From assembly GCA_902462015.1 (NCBI GenBank), contig CABPZV010000002.1, forward strand, positions 1-45,745: a stretch of 45,745 nucleotides of DNA, written 5' to 3'. The first letter of the stretch is position 1; each line of letters starts with the position of its first letter. A model generated the notes under the pieces. It did not search any database. It was not told the origin of the DNA and saw only the letters and a program-made list of their open reading frames with translations. This stretch comes from an uncultured Eubacteriales bacterium. Lineage in GTDB: Bacteria; Bacillota; Clostridia; Oscillospirales; CAG-272. Below, piece after piece: positions 35,966-44,064 of the stretch. Position numbers and translations under genes: made by a program.

Positions 35966-35998
35966 AAAAAATTAGCCGCGCCGCCGCGCGGCTTTTGT
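35966..35998. terminator. bidirectional terminator between typA and the island's last gene
   Basis: AGCCGCGC-CGCC-GCGCGGCT (35974-35993), flanked by an A-run (left) and TTTTGTT (right). Confidence 0.75.
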
Positions 35999-36006
35999 TA
36001 TTAAAC

Positions 36007-37137
36007 TCAGTTAAAATAAGTAATTTCAAGAATCTGCGGCTTATCATAGCAATCCCCGGTTGAAATTAAGGAATAGCTGTTTTCATCAGATTTCGGTTTT
36101 AAAACAAAGCCTAATGATTCTATAAAATTCTGTGTTTCACTGTCAACAGTAAATCCTGTAATGTCTATAATATAGTAATTGTCAGTCAATACGGCTTTTG
36201 CTGTGTTTGTTGATCTGCTGTCATTATTGTTCCACGTAGTTCCGATACTGCAAAATCTTCTCATCAAATTATACGCTGTAACCGAAGTGACGTTATTATT
36301 AAGTCTTGGAATTAATAAGCAAATAGATTTTATTCTCTTCAACAATATGTTTCTTATAATGCCATAATCTATTTTGGAAAACAGCCACTGTTCTCCAAAT
36401 TCCTTTCCGCTGCCGATAAGAGCAGATGCCCCATATAGGTTATTTTCATCCGGCCGTCTGTTTTCAACGGTTGTATCCAGCATAAGCTTCTGTTCATACA
36501 TATTACATTCAATTTCAACCGTCTTTATCCTGTCCGAACATTCTATACATATTTCATAATGCCGTTCGTCTATAGCCTTTGTATTAAGTATTATAGAACC
36601 GGGCGTAAAGTCTTCAATGCTTCTGTCCCCTATAACGGAAACTGTAAAAATCGGCGTAATGTCACCCGACATAAAAGAAAAATATTTTTCATTGTATTTA
36701 ACTCCATACGGCATTTCATTTATATCAATATATAATTTAATAAATTTTTCTTTTTCCAAAAGCTTTTTAATTCTGACTCCATTCAGCGTAGGTGTGAGGC
36801 TAACTACCGGACGTCCATTATAAACAGAGCAATTATCTTTTTTTGACATTTCAATATGTACAATACCGCAATTATTCTTTAAACAGATTACATTGCTTCG
36901 CACCAAAATATCTGCATTGCTTCCGGTATGATGTAAACATCCATTTTCCTGCCTGAAACTCAAATTCACAAGTTGACCGTCTGTGATATTAAATATCGGC
37001 ACACTGAAAACGTAGGAAGTTGTAGTTGAATCTTTATTATCTATTTCGAGCATATACCGGTTTAAGAATTTATTTTGACATATAATACTCTCCCTGCCGT
37101 TTCGTATTCGTTTGATTTCATTAATCGGCGAGTCCAT
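36007..37137 (-). CDS. hypothetical protein, leaderless, C-terminal half DNRLRE/CBM96-like
   Basis: 376 aa, strong RBS AGGAGG. No signal peptide (MDSPINEIKRIRNGRES...). DTTVENRRPDENNLYGASALIGSG...WLFSKIDY...IKSICLLIP...VTAYNL...GTTWNNN fits the DNRLRE-domain pattern (DTYV..N.G....KFDL...I.SA.L.L...V..Y....TWNN). Confidence 0.5.
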   Translation of the reverse strand: MDSPINEIKRIRNGRESIICQNKFLNRYMLEIDNKDSTTTSYVFSVPIFNITDGQLVNLSFRQENGCLHHTGSNADILVRSNVICLKNNCGIVHIEMSKKDNCSVYNGRPVVSLTPTLNGVRIKKLLEKEKFIKLYIDINEMPYGVKYNEKYFSFMSGDITPIFTVSVIGDRSIEDFTPGSIILNTKAIDERHYEICIECSDRIKTVEIECNMYEQKLMLDTTVENRRPDENNLYGASALIGSGKEFGEQWLFSKIDYGIIRNILLKRIKSICLLIPRLNNNVTSVTAYNLMRRFCSIGTTWNNNDSRSTNTAKAVLTDNYYIIDITGFTVDSETQNFIESLGFVLKPKSDENSYSLISTGDCYDKPQILEITYFN

Positions 37138-37226
37138 TTTGTACCTCCTGTTATTTACATACGATAAAACCCTATTAATATTAAGAGCTATGCGTAATTC
37201 CGCACAGCTCTTTAATAATAAATTAT

Positions 37227-39473
37227 TTAAAGTTCAGGACGCCAGTTAGCATACAAGACCATATTGTAATCGGGCACAATAGTTAATATATTAATCTTTT
37301 GTCCCTTTCCATTCGGAAGCGTATACCAGCCGTCAAAATATTTCTCTTCTTCGCAGCAGCATACCTCAGGCAAACGTCCGAAAATTTCACCGACATCACA
37401 ATAAATTAAAGAGTTTCCTATCAAACACCCTCCGCAAGGATTAAATAATACCCTTACCATCCAATGAGCATACAACACTACAGTATTCTCGGGAACAATT
37501 GAAAGTGCTTTAACAGAATACCCTTCAGAATCAGAAGAGGTATACCAACCTTTAAAGGTACATCCATCGCGAATAGGAATATTATCATTAAGAACAGAAC
37601 CATATTTTTCATTTGTAGGGCAATATACAGTTATAGCATTCCCTGAGTAATTATCGCAAAATATAACCGCTGTAACTTTTGTCCAATGCGCATAAAGAGA
37701 ATGATCTGAATTAGAACACAATGTTTCTGTTGTAACCTGATTTCCTCCTGATTGTTCAGTAAACCAGCCGTCGAAGCGATAACCACTTCTCTCCATAGAA
37801 GAAGGCAAAGCTTCTCCGTATGCTTCTCCATCATAAGCGTTAAATGTATTAAAAGTGCTTGTATCTGAATCAGAAAAATTGCGTTTCAAAGTCACCTGAA
37901 CAATGCGAGTCCAATGACCATACAATGTTAAATTTTTGACAGCAGGAACAATTGTACCATTAAAGTATCTCGTTCCTCCAACTACGGCGGTATACCATCC
38001 GTCAAACCTGTATCCATCGCAACCAGCAGGCAGCAAAGAAATTTCTCCTCCTACAGGAAATTTCAAAGTTATAGGCTCTTCATCATCAGAAGTGCTTGAA
38101 TTTTTTATATAGGTTACAGCCGCAACTCGAGTCCAATGAGCATATAAATAAAGTGTATCTTCATTTGGAACAATTGTTTCTGAAGTATATTTAGTTCCTC
38201 CACTTCTACTCGTATACCAACCCTCAAATGTATAATATGCATCTTCAGTTTCAAAATCTATATATTCGAACTTGGACATATCTCCAATTGGTTGTCCTTC
38301 ATAACATGTCGTGGTATTAAAATTTATTACATCTTCAGCTGTACGGTTTCTAACAAAGATCACATTGACCTTATGTTTCCACCGCGCATATAAAGGATGG
38401 CCATATGTCTTTATGGTTGAATCTGCCGTATGCTGTGTTCCACCTACACGGTCAGTATACCAACCGTCAAACTCATAATTGCTTCTCGTCCATTCCAAAT
38501 CGCTTGGGTTCAGTAAACTGTTTCCATATTTTTGGTTTGCATAATGCTGTACTACTTTACATGTTGTATCTTTATCTGAGTAATTTCTATAGTAAGTAAT
38601 ATTTACAACCAAAATCCATTGTGCATATAGCGGGTAATTAATTGCAGGTACAATGGTATCTAATGTATGTTGTGTTCCGCCCTCTCTGTCAGTATACCAA
38701 CCAGCAAATACAAAATCTTCTCTATCTGGAGGTATATAAAAAGTTACTCCATTATCCCTATAACTTTTGCCAGCCTCTAATTCCTTTGTATCCAACTGTT
38801 CAGTATCACTTACAGAATAATTTCTGTAAAATTTTACCGTATACTTAATTGGTACATTTCCACCTGACGAGCTTTTGGGTGCTTTGATAATATATTCTGA
38901 TGTAGTAGAAATAAGTGTTTCTTCATTAGTTATACTTCCATTGTAACCTCCCCAAGAAATCATACATCTTTTTGATACGTTTTGAGGATTCCCCCATACT
39001 TCGGCAAAAGTAACAATATTTTTTCCAGTTGTAGAATCTGTAGTTACTGTATGGACAATAGCACTATGACCATTTTTTCTAATTATATCGCCCGGTGACA
39101 AATGAATTCCAACAGCATGATTTTGCGTATAATAAATCCAACCATTTGCATCTGTATACCCATTATAATCAGCACCATAATAATAATCTTGAGGGTAAGA
39201 GTTAAAAACTCGATACGCCATATATAATGCAAAACCAGCACATTGTATACTACTTTTAAAACAATTACAGCCACATGCACCCTTTAAATAATAATTGCAA
39301 TTATCATCTGGATGATGTGTACAGGGTATATCTCTAACCGAATCAGGATGGTTAATGCCGTTATTTATATCTTCTGCCGATGCAAGATCATTTGGATCAT
39401 GATTCCAGAACTTTCCATGAGCAAAAGTGTTTTTTAATAGGTTTAGCTTTTGAGTTACTTCTATGTCAGTCAT
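37227..39473 (-). CDS. leaderless papain-fold (CHAP/NlpC-P60-like) hydrolase domain plus 7 tandem Listeria-Bacteroides (InlB B-type) repeats
   Basis: 748 aa, RBS AAGGAG. The N-terminal ~200 aa are Cys-rich, with candidate catalytic SIQC(78)AGFALY and GDIIRKNGH(136)SAIVH. Seven ~75-aa repeats cover aa 210-748 (nt 37230-38846), each ending F.GWYT...GG(T/N)....TIVP....LYA(H/Q/R)W. Confidence 0.55.
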   Translation of the reverse strand: MTDIEVTQKLNLLKNTFAHGKFWNHDPNDLASAEDINNGINHPDSVRDIPCTHHPDDNCNYYLKGACGCNCFKSSIQCAGFALYMAYRVFNSYPQDYYYGADYNGYTDANGWIYYTQNHAVGIHLSPGDIIRKNGHSAIVHTVTTDSTTGKNIVTFAEVWGNPQNVSKRCMISWGGYNGSITNEETLISTTSEYIIKAPKSSSGGNVPIKYTVKFYRNYSVSDTEQLDTKELEAGKSYRDNGVTFYIPPDREDFVFAGWYTDREGGTQHTLDTIVPAINYPLYAQWILVVNITYYRNYSDKDTTCKVVQHYANQKYGNSLLNPSDLEWTRSNYEFDGWYTDRVGGTQHTADSTIKTYGHPLYARWKHKVNVIFVRNRTAEDVINFNTTTCYEGQPIGDMSKFEYIDFETEDAYYTFEGWYTSRSGGTKYTSETIVPNEDTLYLYAHWTRVAAVTYIKNSSTSDDEEPITLKFPVGGEISLLPAGCDGYRFDGWYTAVVGGTRYFNGTIVPAVKNLTLYGHWTRIVQVTLKRNFSDSDTSTFNTFNAYDGEAYGEALPSSMERSGYRFDGWFTEQSGGNQVTTETLCSNSDHSLYAHWTKVTAVIFCDNYSGNAITVYCPTNEKYGSVLNDNIPIRDGCTFKGWYTSSDSEGYSVKALSIVPENTVVLYAHWMVRVLFNPCGGCLIGNSLIYCDVGEIFGRLPEVCCCEEEKYFDGWYTLPNGKGQKINILTIVPDYNMVLYANWRPEL

Positions 39474-39553
39474 TTTTTTCTCCTTATATTTATTTTGAAT
39501 GCATTCATAAAAATAAAGAAGAAAATAAAATGATTATTGTCAATACTATTATA

Positions 39554-40789
39554 TTATTTTGCCACTTCGTATTTTTGTGCTTGACGTGAAAGATATTCAT
39601 TAACTTCATCTTCTGACTTTAAATCAAGTAAAGAACCAATATACGTTACATCAAATCCACGCTCTTTTGCTGTTAATGACTTTACAGGATTGTATATAAT
39701 TTTCCCATCTTCTATTTTAACATAACCTTCTTCGTATGCAAACTCATCAAGCCCGGTCCAATAAGGATAAAAATCTGGTGTTCCTCCATAAGAACTATAT
39801 TTACGTGGAATACGAGTATAATTCAAAGAACCATCATCACCCTTTATAAATTTAACGACAGAATAATTATACCATTCTTCATTTTGGATTTTCCCATCGT
39901 TTGGATTCGGATCAATTATTTCAATATTTATAATACTATCTTTCGCAAAAATCCATGTGTCTCCAAAACCATAAATATTTGTATTAGAAAACACTATTCC
40001 TTCAGTAGTTTCATATGCTTCATTGCTTTTAGAGTTGTTAACACCATTAATATATGTGTCAAAATAAGGCTCATCAAAAAGCTTTTGTTGACTGTTCGCA
40101 CTGAAAGCTTTACAATACAAATAATATTTTCTTCCTAATATATCGTCTGAATTTGCATATTTTCTTTCTATTTCCGCCATCATACCGCCAGAAACGAGAT
40201 TAGCTTCTCCTTCTCCATCTATATTATCAGAAATTACGTCAAAAAAAACGTCAAACATATCATAATCATCCTTGATAATGTTTGGCATGCAAAAAAATAA
40301 AGTATCGTCACTCTTTAAAAGAACACCATCTACAAATTTGAAATATGTATTCTCTTCCGGAACTTCAATACTTTCAAGAGCACTCAAGCTTACAAAAGCC
40401 TGCGTATCAATATTTTCAACTGACTTTCCAAGTTTTATTGTTTTTATTTTGTCAGCAACTGAACTTGCTCCAAATGCGTCTGCCGAAATCGTTACCACCT
40501 CATCAGGGATTGAAACACTCTCCGCTGTTCCGTTATACGCAGTTAAAATTCTTTCATCAGATATTATAAACTCAGATAACGGTAATTCTTGCGTTTCGCT
40601 CTCAATTTCAGAAGTTTGTATACTAGTATTTACTTTAGTATCTGATGTAATGTCATCATTAAATACCGGTTTTTCAGAAGCATTACAGGACGAAAAAGTT
40701 ACACATAGCATAGCTACAAGACAACAATTGCTTATAATTTTATTTCGGTTTAATAATATAGTATTTTTTTTATTTTCATTGCCGCACAT
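39554..40789 (-). CDS. lipoprotein, paralog 1: BspA-type LRR segment plus a conserved uncharacterised C-terminal domain
   Basis: 411 aa, RBS AGGAG. Signal peptide with lipobox-like LCVTFSSC. LRR_5-like segment VSIPDEVVTISADAFG...IKTIKLGKSVENIDTQAFVSLSALESIEVP. The C-terminal ~250 aa is shared with the two upstream paralogs. Confidence 0.6.
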   Translation of the reverse strand: MCGNENKKNTILLNRNKIISNCCLVAMLCVTFSSCNASEKPVFNDDITSDTKVNTSIQTSEIESETQELPLSEFIISDERILTAYNGTAESVSIPDEVVTISADAFGASSVADKIKTIKLGKSVENIDTQAFVSLSALESIEVPEENTYFKFVDGVLLKSDDTLFFCMPNIIKDDYDMFDVFFDVISDNIDGEGEANLVSGGMMAEIERKYANSDDILGRKYYLYCKAFSANSQQKLFDEPYFDTYINGVNNSKSNEAYETTEGIVFSNTNIYGFGDTWIFAKDSIINIEIIDPNPNDGKIQNEEWYNYSVVKFIKGDDGSLNYTRIPRKYSSYGGTPDFYPYWTGLDEFAYEEGYVKIEDGKIIYNPVKSLTAKERGFDVTYIGSLLDLKSEDEVNEYLSRQAQKYEVAK

Positions 40790-41186
40790 TATCTTCTACT
40801 CCTATTCATATTTAATTATATCGGTTATATATTACCATTTATGGAAAGAAGTGTCAATACTTTCCATAGCCATTTATAAAATATTAGGTATCTTATAAAT
40901 AAAAAAAATAAAATTAAATCTACTTTTTAATATTTATATATACAAATATATTATTAATATTTTATTATTCGCAGATATTTTATGTTAATAAATCAACATT
41001 AAAACAAAATGTTGTTATCATAATATATATTAATGACAACAACATTATATGCAAGTTTATGAAGTTATGTTAAAGAACTTATGTTAAATATATAAGATAT
41101 ATTTCAAAATCACATTTTGAATGATTTTATAAATTGAACGAGCAATAAAAAACTTATACTGTACTAATAGTTAGAATAAAACACAT

Positions 41187-42440
41187 TTATTTTGCAGATT
41201 CGTATATTTCAGCATTATGAGCAAGAAAGTCATCTACTGTAGGAAAGTCATCTCTATAGAACGTATCGTAATATCCTTTAATATCTTCAATTAAATTAGG
41301 ATTACTATTAGCGGTATACCGCGATTCAGGATAATAAATTATCTGGCCGTTTTCAATTCTTACATTTCCAGTTTCACTTGCAAATTCATCAAATCCTGTA
41401 GAAAACAAAGCATATTGACAAGTACCAGGAATTCTACCATATTTTCGTGGATGCCTGTAATACTTGAGATCTCCATTATCACTACAGAAAAATCTTATAA
41501 TAGAATAATTATACCATTCTACATCTCCTATCTTCCCGTCTTGCGGTAATGGATCAATAATTTCTATTTCCACAATTTGTTCATTTGTTATTACCCATGT
41601 TTTACCAAATCCATATCTGCTAGTATTAGCAAATACTACACCTGCTGATGTATCATAAATTTTATTTCTTTTATACCAATAATGATTATCATTTTTATAT
41701 TTATATGTATCACATACAGGTTCATCAAATAATAGTTCTTGCCCATTTGCATAGATAGAATTACAATAAAGATTATACTTTCTTTCTAAAATATCATCAG
41801 ATTGTGCATACTCATATTTAATATTAGCTATAATATCTCCTGATACTAACTGAGCTATCCCCGTTCCATCTATTTTATAAGATATAATGTCATCGAAAAC
41901 ATCAAACATATCGTAATCATCTCTAATAATATTTGGTACACAAAAAAATATCGAAAAATCATTCTTTATAAGAACCCCATCTGATGATTGAAAATAAGGA
42001 TTATTTCTTGAAACTTTAATATCTTCCAAAGCCGTTAAACTTAGAAATGCTTGCGCATCAACATTTTGAACTGATTTTCCAAGTATAACTTTCTTAATAT
42101 TATTGGCCTCGGGACTTACTCCGAAAGCATCAGCCCCAATTGAGGTCACAACATCGGGAATTTCCACTATTGTATCTGTACCCATATATTTAGTTAAAAT
42201 TCCAGCTTCTGATATATCAAAATCAGGATTTTGATTATCAATAACCAAGGCTGCCTCATTGTTTATTATAGTATCACTATTATTCCCAGTTATATCATTT
42301 ACTCCAGGCAAATACGAGTTTTGAGAATCACTTTTATGGGTTAATAACAATGTAATTCCAATAATAAGAAATACAATTACTATACATAAAGTTATTATAA
42401 CATTACGGGTTTTAACTATTCTTTTATCATTATAATCCAT
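41187..42440 (-). CDS. membrane-anchored paralog 2 (LRR segment plus conserved uncharacterised domain)
   Basis: The likely start ATG at 42440 (MDYNDKR...) follows RBS GGAAAGG; the track ORF starts at an upstream TTG (42458). N-terminal TM VIITLCIVIVFLIIGITLLL. Same architecture as 39554-40789. Confidence 0.6.
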   Translation of the reverse strand: MDYNDKRIVKTRNVIITLCIVIVFLIIGITLLLTHKSDSQNSYLPGVNDITGNNSDTIINNEAALVIDNQNPDFDISEAGILTKYMGTDTIVEIPDVVTSIGADAFGVSPEANNIKKVILGKSVQNVDAQAFLSLTALEDIKVSRNNPYFQSSDGVLIKNDFSIFFCVPNIIRDDYDMFDVFDDIISYKIDGTGIAQLVSGDIIANIKYEYAQSDDILERKYNLYCNSIYANGQELLFDEPVCDTYKYKNDNHYWYKRNKIYDTSAGVVFANTSRYGFGKTWVITNEQIVEIEIIDPLPQDGKIGDVEWYNYSIIRFFCSDNGDLKYYRHPRKYGRIPGTCQYALFSTGFDEFASETGNVRIENGQIIYYPESRYTANSNPNLIEDIKGYYDTFYRDDFPTVDDFLAHNAEIYESAK

Positions 42441-42508
42441 ATCATATTTCCTTTCCAAATTTTATGATAAATTTTTTTACTTATAGCAAAAAATATTTAT
42501 CATATTAG

Positions 42509-43789
42509 TCATTTTGCAGACTCGTATATTTCAGCATTATGAGCAAGAAACTCTTCAAGCGTTTTTTCACCGAATCCCTGAGCATCATTATAATTATATA
42601 AATAGAAAACATCTTGCAAATATCCGCTAATAGGATCTTCTTTTACAGTCCAAACTCTATTAGGAGAATAAATAATTTCTCCATTTTCAATTTTTACATT
42701 ACCCGTTTCACCTGCAAATTCATCGAATCCAGTACAACGATAAGGATTAACAATAGTTCCCCCCGTAATCGTAAATTTATATGGCCTACGTAAATATTTC
42801 AGAGAGCCATCTTTTCCACGACGAAAATTTATTACTGAATAATTATAATCAGCATCGCTCATATTAGTAAAATAATTCTCTACTTCAATTTTTGCATGAG
42901 CAATTGAATCTTCTGTTAATATCCACACATCTCCGAACCCTTCATAAACCGTGTTAGAAAGAACAACTCCTTGATTTGTTTCAAAAACCCGACAAGATTT
43001 AGAATTATTAACACCATATATATATGCTAATGGTTCATTAAAATCAAGTTTTTGACCATTGGCATAAAAGGAGTTGCAAAAAATGTTATATTTCATGTCA
43101 AGTGAATCTTTTATTTCCTTTTCTGCTTCTAATACATTTACATTAGCAATCATTCCGCCTAATATAATTTGTTTTGTTCCATAAGCATCTTCATTATCTG
43201 AAATTGCATCATAAAATACATCGAACATATCATAATCATAACTATATTTGATAATACTCGGCATACAGAAAAATACTGAATTATCTGTTTTAATCAGTAC
43301 ACCGTCTCCAGATGTATAAGTACTATTTTCTTCAGGTACTTCCACATTTTCAAGCTTAGTAAGACTAACAAACGCCTGTACATCAATGTCTTCAACCGAT
43401 TTTCCAAGCTTTACAGTTTTAATTTCATCCGCATATGGACTTGTGCCGAATGCATCCTCACCAATAGAAATTACATTGTCAGGAATTACGACGGTTTCGT
43501 CGTCTCCATTGTATGCTGTCAAAACACCAGCTTCTGATATTTCAAATTCGGGTTTCGGAGCTTCGGTTTCTGCTTCCGTCTCATTGTCTTGTGACTGATC
43601 CGAATTGCTTTCCGACTCCGTTGTATCGGTACCGGTAATAGCAGCCCCGTCAGAATTCCGAAAATGCATTACTAATACAGTCGCCACAACGATACAAATA
43701 GCTGCCACTATACAGCAACATACGGCGATTCTGCCGTTTTTCTTAGGATTATTTTCCTTTGCTTGCATTTCTACACTGTTGTTATCCAT
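42509..43789 (-). CDS. membrane-anchored paralog 3 (LRR segment plus conserved uncharacterised domain)
   Basis: The likely start ATG at 43789 (MDNNSVE...) follows RBS GAGAAAGGA; the track ORF begins 18 nt upstream (43807) with no RBS. N-terminal TM IAVCCCIVAAICIVVATVLV, then an acidic Ser/Thr/Glu linker. Same architecture. Confidence 0.6.
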   Translation of the reverse strand: MDNNSVEMQAKENNPKKNGRIAVCCCIVAAICIVVATVLVMHFRNSDGAAITGTDTTESESNSDQSQDNETEAETEAPKPEFEISEAGVLTAYNGDDETVVIPDNVISIGEDAFGTSPYADEIKTVKLGKSVEDIDVQAFVSLTKLENVEVPEENSTYTSGDGVLIKTDNSVFFCMPSIIKYSYDYDMFDVFYDAISDNEDAYGTKQIILGGMIANVNVLEAEKEIKDSLDMKYNIFCNSFYANGQKLDFNEPLAYIYGVNNSKSCRVFETNQGVVLSNTVYEGFGDVWILTEDSIAHAKIEVENYFTNMSDADYNYSVINFRRGKDGSLKYLRRPYKFTITGGTIVNPYRCTGFDEFAGETGNVKIENGEIIYSPNRVWTVKEDPISGYLQDVFYLYNYNDAQGFGEKTLEEFLAHNAEIYESAK

Positions 43790-44004
43790 AATATTTTCCT
43801 TTCTCATATAAATAATTTAGCAGATTTTTTCTGTAAATTTATTTTATCACATTATTTAATAAATTTCAATAGATTTTTATAAAAAAGTAAAAACAAGTAT
43901 ATTTTTGTAAAATCAAATCAAAGTTAGTAAATAAATACTGAATCAGTAAATAGTTTTTAAACAGCAAGCGAGCAATAACAACGAGATGCCGAGTGAAAGA
44001 AATA

Positions 44005-44046
44005 TAAATTCAGTTCAAAATCCGGAGCTGTATAAAAATCATACAG
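44005..44046 (-). terminator. rho-independent terminator of the ABC transporter operon
   Basis: 15-bp perfect stem AATCCGGAGCTGTAT (44009-44023) / ATACAGCTCCGGATT (44031-44045). On the minus strand it is followed by TTTTG. Confidence 0.8.
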
Positions 44047-44064
44047 CTCCGGATTATTTAAATA

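Follow-up and report, generated by a model that had tools for sequence, protein, structure and literature searches.

Between typA and an amino-acid ABC operon, in a 45,745-nucleotide stretch of DNA from an uncultured Eubacteriales bacterium (contig CABPZV010000002.1; "the window" hereafter means this whole stretch), lies a cluster of five minus-strand genes, here called g1 to g5. Our tentative reading, held with limited confidence and drawn from sequence patterns and from analogy, is that the cluster encodes a polymorphic, strain-specific wall-hydrolase effector (g2) together with a surface-anchored immunity array (the paralogs g3 to g5). This reading is favored because (i) an anchored leucine-rich repeat (LRR) protein gene and a leaderless CHAP-like protein gene keep an obligate-looking adjacency, (ii) the variable modules of the two are exchanged together, (iii) the catalytic residues of the CHAP-like head are retained, (iv) the partner genes form a recombining array, and (v) the anchors would place the partners where a wall enzyme would act. 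The support for counting the cluster among polymorphic loci that resemble effector-immunity systems is real but computational throughout.

The protein encoded by g2 consists of a Cys-rich N-terminal head and a stalk of Listeria-Bacteroides (Flg_new) repeats, which score above the cut-off of their model and have the InlB B-repeat as their PDB match. No curated model covers the head of 204 amino acids (aa). Its match to the Pfam CHAP family (PF05257) reaches 15 bits (E = 0.037), under the gathering threshold of 26 bits; a CHAP match was obtained for 6 of 12 close homologues of the head at E ≤ 1 (best 2.3e-5) and for 8 of 87 wider relatives at E ≤ 0.001 (best 1.4e-9). The conserved residues are C51, H53, H54, C59, C67, C69, C78 (in IQCxGFA), H136 (in GHSAIV), and C170, and C78 and H136 are invariant or nearly so across the head alignments despite the diversification of the head. 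With the CHAP family, the head shares this Cys...His motif pair, weak Pfam matches in several members, and wall-binding partner domains, but it differs in having an extra N-terminal helix (KFPxGKYWNH) and a CxHH...C...CGC cluster outside the Pfam model. As far as sequence comparison goes, it is best described as an unmodelled CHAP-related subfamily, of which an exhaustive profile search recovered at least 1055 representatives. A signal peptide stands immediately before the domain in 99 of the 146 best representatives, and 24 of the 146 are leaderless, with the domain at residue 1, most of these (15 of 24) beginning with 'MT' (typically 'MTNxEV'). The domains that accompany the head in its family are Flg_new, RicinB, dockerin, SLH, Big_2, fn3, SH3_3, and choline-binding repeats. 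Signal peptides and partner domains together point to an extracellular, wall-associated, CHAP-related domain, with g2 in the leaderless minority. The N termini of g1 and g2 both lack a hydrophobic segment, and neither gene could be extended upstream in frame, in the case of g2 because only 80 nucleotides (nt) separate it from g3.

The paralogs g3 to g5 share the order N-terminal anchor, disordered linker, short BspA-type LRR solenoid, and variable C-domain of ~230 aa. The anchor of g4 and g5 is a strong transmembrane segment (KD19 3.1-3.3); that of g3, the paralog directly upstream of g2, is a lipobox-like FSSC of the lipoprotein type. The position and type of g3 are alike in the close relatives compared here, which are Oscillospiraceae metagenome-assembled genomes (MAGs) and gut metagenomes (L001-L004 and L176). 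All three paralogs score below the 27.7-bit gathering threshold of LRR_5 (PF13306), at 19.7-26.6 bits. The profile of the paralog family nevertheless matches LRR structures in the PDB (4gt6 at 1.6e-19 and 4fs7 at 6e-11), and the AlphaFold2 (AF2) model of g5 matches 4h09, 4fs7, and 6mlx (probability 0.97-1.0 over 76-96 columns), so that profile and model alike indicate a BspA-type LRR solenoid confined to a segment of ~100 aa. The C-domain is modelled as six beta-hairpins and two terminal helices; searched against the PDB, it gave only weak propeller-like fold matches (E ~1e-2, TM-score ≤ 0.21) and none by sequence profile. Mean pairwise identity among the paralogs is 47% in the C-domain, compared with 71% in the LRR segment. 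A first-pass annotation of this DNA had called a CHAP-like, Cys-rich g2 head with seven Listeria-Bacteroides repeats and no signal peptide, as well as anchored BspA-type LRR paralogs; both calls hold, the g2 head being divergent and below the CHAP threshold. Its remark that no motif could be recognized in the paralog C-domain also agrees with the profile and structure searches, which returned no convincing relative in fold or sequence, but its description of this part as a conserved domain of ~250 aa has to be reversed, since the C-domain is the hypervariable, recombining part and the LRR segment is the conserved one.

Each close relative, at 98% typA identity, carries the ABC operon, 3 to 7-8 paralogs, a g2 of 730-808 aa, a g1 of 376 aa, and typA. 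Between the window and these relatives, the flanking genes are 98% (typA), 94-97% (aspartokinase), 96-97% (ABC permease), and 90-92% (ABC ATPase) identical, compared with 80% for g1, 44-78% for the paralogs, and 34-62% for g2; in DNA, even the flanks are only ~84% identical, and synonymous sites are saturated. From the first g2 repeat through the end of g1, the DNA of L004 and L002, two of the relatives, is 100% identical; in the g2 head and in the 3' end of the paralog beside it, identity falls to 54-82%, with a sharp junction at the head/stalk boundary. This contrast argues that the g2 head and the adjacent paralog 3' end are exchanged as one cassette. In L176, the head is 34-45% identical versus 62-64% for the stalk. 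Over ten genome pairs, the identity of the head (43-74%) tracks that of the adjacent paralog C-domain (39-73%), the LRR part being 76-99% identical.

The paralogs also appear to recombine among themselves. In 50 family members compared, the half that holds the anchor and the LRR (N-half) differs from the C-half in its nearest relatives; the N-half of P0007, for example, is 99% identical to that of P0009 and 50% identical to that of P0046, whereas its C-half is 41% identical to P0009 and 99% identical to P0046. Such mosaic halves point to recombination at the LRR/C-domain boundary, for which the conserved C-terminal tail and the LRR segment would supply the homology. The tandem arrays hold 3 to 7-8 copies, the upper number being uncertain, since in MAG GCA_003343545.1 the array (L001:11287-13911 / L002:7377-9953) shows two identical 412-aa copies, a 129-aa fragment, and then an uncalled gap of ~2.2 kb, which could be either a recent duplication or an assembly problem. 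At the DNA level, two sets of paralog 3'-end segments in the window (39556-39601, 41189-41234, and 42511-42556; 39686-39761, 41328-41403, and 42662-42737) are 66-93% identical to the reference copy. They correspond to the conserved tail and the last beta-hairpin, the remaining C-domain DNA giving no repeat match at the settings used, and they are likely anchors for inter-paralog recombination.

Outside the window lineage, leaderless fusions of the head to RicinB (319-331 aa) occur in two further unrelated chromosomal contexts (L092; L093/L094). The head-RicinB genes are directly preceded by a gene for a lipoprotein that is a full-length g3 homologue (24-28% identity, E 1e-14 to 4e-23); L092 has another gene for a lipoprotein of this kind 3' of the head-RicinB gene, and in L093, the lipoprotein and head-RicinB genes overlap by ATGA. 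Adjacency in three unrelated contexts (the window lineage, L092, and L093/L094) suggests that the conserved core is a two-gene module, an anchored LRR protein followed by a leaderless CHAP-like protein, and not the five-gene set. The earlier proposal of a five-gene module therefore stands in part: the anchored LRR/leaderless CHAP-like pair co-localizes in all three contexts, but the five genes occur together in one narrow lineage only, and g1 was never next to g2 or the paralogs in 85 loci outside that lineage. The contrast drawn earlier, with anchored, exported LRR proteins on one side and, on the other, two leaderless proteins whose domains are of an extracellular type, remains valid, and one of the options raised for an envelope module, an effector with cognate surface proteins, gains support from the three-context adjacency, the co-variation, and the cassette exchange.

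In the mechanism that we propose, g2 would be the effector, with a CHAP-type peptidoglycan amidase or peptidase head carried on the seven-repeat Flg_new stalk. Because g2 has no signal peptide, it would leave the producer by a non-Sec route. The g3 to g5 proteins would stand on the outward side of the membrane, where a wall enzyme would act, and their variable C-domain would bind and neutralize the cognate head. Immunity to the cognate head would fall to g3, with g4 and g5 as extra or orphan immunities against the heads of other strains, while g1 would be a targeting or release accessory of the kind found elsewhere beside leaderless RHS toxins. The whole cluster would then serve strain-against-strain competition.

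Parts of this mechanism have counterparts in characterized systems. In type VII secretion system (T7SS) loci, EsaD/EsaG and TspA/TsaI likewise have a variable enzymatic module and an adjacent variable partner that are exchanged together, and T7SS immunity genes form strings of tandem, mutually recombining paralogs (PMC9484751). The cluster differs from T7SS loci in having no T7SS genes and no LXG or WXG domain, in the N-terminal instead of C-terminal position of the enzymatic domain, and in a putative immunity gene that lies upstream and encodes a ~410-aa LRR protein; toxicity and protection are here predictions only. TelC/TipC combines a toxin that acts in the wall zone with a surface- or membrane-anchored immunity partner (PMC6193138), an arrangement like that suggested for g2 and g3 to g5. 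In type VI secretion systems (T6SSs), the pairs Tse1/Tsi1 and Tae/Tai combine a papain-fold (NlpC/P60 or CHAP-like) peptidoglycan hydrolase with an all-beta immunity partner placed in the periplasm, the compartment where the hydrolase acts (PMC3391265). Unlike these amidase effectors, the cluster resides in a Gram-positive host that has no T6SS here, its partner is unrelated in sequence and fold, and its effector carries a long repeat stalk. With respect to the criteria applied to polymorphic toxins, replacement of the toxin module by recombination with the rest constant is seen in L004/L002 and in L176, and an adjacent co-varying partner gene is seen over the 10 pairs and the three contexts, the immunity role of this partner being putative.

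Several observations weigh against an effector with an immunity array: (i) the export of g2 is unexplained, as neither a trafficking domain nor a linked secretion apparatus was found in the cluster or the window (g2 has no LXG or other N-terminal trafficking domain, and neither the cluster nor the remainder of the window holds a secretion-system, holin, or lysis gene); (ii) the polarity is the reverse of that of classical polymorphic toxins, the variable enzymatic domain being N-terminal and the putative immunity gene upstream; (iii) the candidate immunity proteins, at ~410 aa, are large and include an LRR module for which immunity would have no use, and no Pfam, PADLOC, or PDB relative ties their C-domain to an immunity family; (iv) the CHAP membership of the g2 head lies below threshold and comes from sequence only; (v) the co-variation of head and C-domain derives from five related, non-independent alleles, and mere physical contiguity could account for their co-exchange; and (vi) g1 is missing where the LRR/CHAP-like pair occurs in its other two contexts and is usually found in an enzyme operon, so that the link to g2 could be incidental.

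With regard to export, large leaderless exotoxins and bacteriocins of clostridia are released by holin-like proteins, as in TcdA/B-TcdE and BCN5-UviB, and lysis or holin release is the usual clostridial solution. Like these toxins, g2 is a large leaderless protein with extracellular-type domains, and like phage endolysins, it carries its catalytic domain at the N terminus and its binding domain at the C terminus; unlike both, it has no holin or endolysin gene in or beside its cluster and no phage relatives, a holin link being seen only in distant g1 loci. Hitch-hiking of g2 on a lipoprotein partner through the twin-arginine translocation (Tat) pathway was rejected, as no twin-arginine motif occurs in any partner N terminus. 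The closest head relative that bears a signal peptide (P0265, in L182:3016-8700) reads '...INA' and then directly 'MTNSEV...', i.e., the leaderless N terminus follows right behind the signal peptide; in this one case (n = 1), the neighbors are an extracytoplasmic function (ECF) sigma factor, a DUF4367 protein, and an LRR_5+SLH protein, with no paralog-family gene. In L178:1010-2521, gene calling splits one g2 allele into a 211-aa protein with the head only and a distinct 269-aa open reading frame (ORF) behind it, and tblastn aligns 530 aa of g2 over both; this allele would be either a frameshifted (pseudogenised) g2 or a sequencing error.

The same genes could also be turned toward the producer itself, which we consider unlikely, although it deserves a serious hearing. 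Here, g2 would be the autolysin or surface enzyme of the producer, docked, positioned, or regulated by the anchored LRR proteins on the wall of the producing cell, to serve in cell separation, the turnover of the wall, or foraging for glycans, and the hypervariation would come from phage or host-antibody (immunoglobulin A) pressure and not from toxin-immunity co-evolution. The LRR is a classic protein-docking surface and is the conserved part of the paralogs, the LRR and CHAP-like genes are tightly coupled in an operon, and gut bacterial surface proteins are commonly hypervariable. Moreover, g2 has no anchor of its own while its relatives have SLH, dockerin, choline-binding, or SH3 anchors, and the leaderless form may need a protein anchor. 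However, in a housekeeping autolysin, a catalytic head with as little as 34% identity between strains whose typA is 98% identical would be unexpected, as would the joint exchange of head and partner as one cassette ending in a sharp junction; docks are a poor explanation for 3 to 7-8 mosaic partners per enzyme, and the export problem is the same.

Analogy also allows kin recognition or lock-and-key adhesion, in which the variable g2 head and the paralog C-domain would be matching ligand and receptor for recognition of the same strain, with catalysis secondary. We regard this as improbable. It would accommodate the co-variation of head and C-domain, the cassette exchange, the presence of several receptor paralogs, and a long repeat stalk apt to reach between cells, but it leaves the export problem where it was, and the strict retention of the catalytic-type Cys and His and of the Cys cluster argues for an active enzyme; a CHAP domain acting as a pure recognition module has no known precedent.

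More improbable still, and again proposed by analogy, is a role in sporulation. In Bacillus subtilis, CwlC, CwlJ, SleL, and Tgl are mother-cell products that act on the mother-cell wall or are laid on the spore surface, and the leaderless g1 and g2 could likewise be made in the mother cell for either purpose, with the paralogs as membrane partners. Leaderless proteins with wall-binding domains are typical of mother-cell products, and SpoIIE is encoded ~8 kb from the cluster in one relative. Lipid-anchored hypervariable partners, strain-level cassette exchange, and lineage restriction, however, misfit conserved machinery; no sporulation-type regulator or promoter was identified, and the locus is absent in relatives with typA 76-90% identical. 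Least credible is a decayed prophage remnant, with g2 as an endolysin-like enzyme and g1 as a tail-fibre or receptor-binding fragment. In its favor are the A+T-rich composition, the endolysin-like layout of g2 (no leader, catalytic domain at the N terminus, binding domain at the C terminus), and the fold of g1, which matches that of a 1379-aa siphovirus protein and of CBM96 parts in phage tail proteins. Against it, searches found no relatives of g1, the g2 head, or the paralogs in IMG/VR save one LRR-only match and none of the g2 head in GenBank phages, no PHROGs match is significant, neither holin, integrase, att repeat, nor tRNA is present, and the genes are all intact, with order and position conserved across relatives.

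If the cluster does encode an effector with anchored immunities, it could represent a new type of antagonism in gut Clostridia, in which a leaderless hydrolase with an exchangeable N-terminal head is combined with an anchored LRR immunity array with a new-fold C-domain, a CBM96-fold accessory, and Sec-independent export that is not encoded in the locus. We consider this full description possible but doubtful. Neither these families nor this arrangement is described in the literature retrieved by a limited full-text search, which does not prove absence, and any annotation that the three core families carry reads 'hypothetical protein' or 'RICIN domain-containing protein'. Known Gram-positive antagonism systems rely on T7SS/LXG or Sec-exported toxins, and interbacterial antagonism is poorly mapped in the dominant, mostly uncultured gut Clostridia (Oscillospiraceae and relatives). 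The locus offers a tractable candidate, with a signature of a head-plus-partner cassette swapped between near-identical strains, mosaic partner arrays, and no recognizable secretion signal. If the proposed mechanism is true, both the effector-immunity architecture and the immunity fold would be new, and the concrete question would arise of how leaderless wall-active proteins exit clostridial cells. Models and metagenome searches could be built on three unannotated families, which could also serve as strain-level markers: the CHAP-related domain with the pattern 'KFPxGKYWNH...CGCN...IQCxGFA' (at least 1055 representatives), the g1 family of ~375 aa, and the C-domain of the paralogs.

The remaining gene, g1, encodes a leaderless, all-beta, two-domain protein (AF2 predicted local distance difference test 88, predicted TM-score 0.90). 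Its C-domain (~aa 215-376) matches the CBM96 structure 8wab (probability 1.0, target TM-score 0.55-0.60, 170-176 columns) and the CBM96 parts of phage tail proteins (probability 1.0), and the whole fold matches part of a 1379-aa siphovirus protein (E 7e-11, query TM-score 0.61). Its scores against DNRLRE (NF033679, 27.5 bits versus a cut-off of 34) and CBM96 (PF24517, 18.8 bits versus a cut-off of 26) are both under the curated values. From the model, we propose that g1 is a glycan-binding protein of the CBM96 fold, and the match to 8wab bears out the earlier call of a leaderless, 376-aa DNRLRE/CBM96-like protein. This fold is shared with the DNRLRE/CBM96 modules of WapA/Rhs toxins and polysaccharide lyases, the DNRLRE domains of Streptococcus suis WapA lying in its N-terminal wall-binding part (PMC12704120), a placement also seen in at least one RHS protein encoded beside a g1 homologue; unlike those modules, g1 stands free, without a toxin or lyase part and without a signal peptide. 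A relationship between g1 and the N-terminal part of the neighboring RHS toxins is a lead at most: BLASTP was not significant, and hhalign, although collinear over 331 columns, gave E = 0.11 and a probability <1%.

The g1 family comprises at least 141 clusters, all ~375 aa, from gut Clostridia and unannotated, and g1 itself is a diverged member (~35% identity). The distant homologues were examined in 85 loci (80 species-representative genome loci and five contig loci), none of which held a relative of g2 or a full-length paralog relative, the sole match being weak and probably LRR-only (in L080). In 47-54 of the 85, the g1 homologue is the last gene of a fixed-spacing, 8-gene operon, in which it follows HTH_11, NTP_transf_5 (PF14907), thymidylate-kinase-like, 81-aa carrier-protein-like (LLDSLS motif), 352-aa (function unassigned), AMP-binding enzyme, and CYTH genes. 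This operon, which is tightly packed and found in many Clostridia species (L013-L090; e.g., L015:4671-11131 and L073:5117-11125), looks like an uncharacterised, carrier-protein-dependent modification or biosynthesis pathway. An assignment of the ~340-, 457-, and 190-aa genes upstream of g1 homologues as phage baseplate genes was dropped, as Pfam identifies them as AMP-binding, CYTH, and other enzymes.

A mostly leaderless RHS/YD toxin of ~2000 aa lies at or near the downstream side of g1 in ~25-30 of the 85 loci (28 large RHS/YD ORFs were counted), often followed by small genes (Imm11 in one locus), and g1 keeps this RHS adjacency even where the operon is missing (L008, L026, L056, and L086). 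These toxins (L008:11171-17194, L010:11508-18059, L013, L026, L030, L033, L034, L046, L047, L065, L071, L073, and L082) have in common an acidic 'EE[IL]YLAPE' within the first ~30 residues, which could be an unrecognised trafficking signal. An internal DNRLRE domain scores above cut-off in at least one of them (L010), the N terminus of the L008 toxin giving no match, and the small genes behind them, with Imm11 in L010, are putative immunity genes accompanied by orphan RHS fragments. A Phage_holin_5_2 or Amidase_2/SH3_3 gene is also present in 11-14 of the 85 loci. In L015:14354-16123, L008:19442-20031, L047, L048, and L057, a 96-128-aa coiled-coil protein with a C-terminal transmembrane segment, a Phage_holin_5_2 holin, and an Amidase_2+SH3_3 endolysin-like gene lie a few kb from the g1 homologues and toxin cassettes, with no other phage genes there; these could form a release module for leaderless toxins. 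In the window lineage, g1 is thus seen as an orphan that joined the two-gene module, and no part of any model is weaker than its role there, which could be glycan targeting, release, or nothing specific.

As to the origin of the cluster, its genes have a GC content of 0.30-0.36, compared with 0.437±0.019 for 27 flank genes, and a third-position GC content (GC3) of 0.16-0.33, compared with 0.394±0.024 in the flanks; in GC3, g2 and the paralogs are 6-9 standard deviations low and g1 ~2.6. The A+T shift noticed in the first-pass annotation is therefore borne out by calculation. Composition, on sequence grounds, speaks for an origin that is foreign or, at the least, atypical. The search for a clean empty site gave none: metagenome relatives with typA at 90% and 56-81% identity have entirely different typA neighborhoods, and the cluster and the flanking synteny are both absent in relatives with typA ≤90% identical. 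No tRNA, integrase, transposase, or flanking repeat occurs at the cluster; a DDE transposase lies ~5 kb past the ABC genes in L001 only. The suggested horizontal acquisition accordingly finds support in the deviating composition and in the occurrence of the core in unrelated contexts, but the same ABC-typA site is occupied in every close relative and mobility features are lacking. The absence of a defence or mobile-element core, also noted at first pass, is confirmed: matches to PADLOC-DB reach only E 0.006-0.019 and fall on low-complexity N termini (chance level), PHROGs gave nothing for g1 and short or weak matches for the others (best E 6.8e-5 over 13 residues of g2), profile scans of IMG/VR with g1, the g2 head, and the paralogs gave nothing beyond one LRR-only paralog match, and tblastn found neither the g2 head in GenBank phages nor the g2 head or g1 in plasmids.

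The five minus-strand ORFs, both terminators, and the A+T-rich spacer were confirmed as first described (Table 1); the hairpin behind the ABC operon was read by eye, the automated terminator scan having missed it. Strong ribosome-binding sites had been claimed for all five genes. AGGAGG-type sites do precede g1, g2, and g3, but those of g4 and g5 (GGAAAGGA/GAAAGGAA) belong to starts 18 nt inside the longest ORFs. These inner starts are most likely the true ones, because they coincide with both the ribosome-binding sites and the N termini of homologues (MDYNDKR..., MDNNSVEMQ...), and the longest-ORF starts have no such site; P0050, which is 100% identical to g4, begins with MDYNDKR. Promoter-like sites 5' of g5 and inside the spacer 5' of g3 suggest two likely transcription units, g5-g4 and g3-g2-g1, the spacer probably holding a separate promoter for the latter. 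A comparable gap of 300-450 nt stands ahead of the last paralog in L001-L004 and L176. The spacer of the window contains no plausible ORF, including no small holin-like ORF, and regulatory RNA and tRNA were looked for in the cluster and not found.

Table 1. Features of the g1-g5 cluster and its boundaries (window coordinates).
Feature	Position	Strand	Details
Bidirectional intrinsic terminator of typA (+) and g1 (-); lower cluster boundary	35974..35993		8-bp stem, 7 G-C pairs, T-runs on both strands
g1	36007..37137	-	376 aa
g2	37227..39473	-	748 aa
g2 stalk, seven Listeria-Bacteroides (Flg_new) repeats, aa ~205-748	37227..38861	-	PF09479 174 bits, 7 stretches; TIGR02543 128.8 bits
g2 head, leaderless Cys-rich divergent CHAP-type (putative papain-fold) domain, aa 1-204	38862..39473	-	Exchangeable part of g2
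g3	39554..40789	-	411 aa
Spacer between g4 and g3	40790..41186	-	397 nt, 18% GC
Promoter-like site in spacer	41073-41044	-	TTAACA-18-TATAAT
Promoter-like site in spacer	40857-40829	-	TTGACA-17-TAATAT with TG
g4, transmembrane-anchored paralog	41187..42440	-	Longest ORF to 42458; probable start ATG 42440, 417 aa
g5, transmembrane-anchored paralog	42509..43789	-	Longest ORF to 43807; probable start ATG 43789, 426 aa
Promoter-like site 5' of g5	43841..43869	-	TTGAAA-17-TAAAAT with TG
Terminator hairpin of upstream amino-acid ABC operon; upper cluster boundary	44016..44055 (approx)	-	14-bp stem, AATCCGGAGCTGTA...TACAGCTCCGGATT then TTTG/T-run, behind ABC ATPase gene

Two observations concern the surroundings of the cluster in the relatives. 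In L004, ~6 kb past the ABC operon and at a position that the window does not reach, a 579-aa protein with Phage_lysozyme2, Flg_new, Big_2, and dockerin domains is encoded (L004:2085-3824), a second wall hydrolase on a Flg_new stalk. At the opposite boundary, a gene for a 370-aa HTH_3/TPR regulator stands between g1 and typA in L002:18286-19398 and L003:17228-18340 and is absent in the window, L004, and L176; it may be a strain-specific regulator of the cluster.

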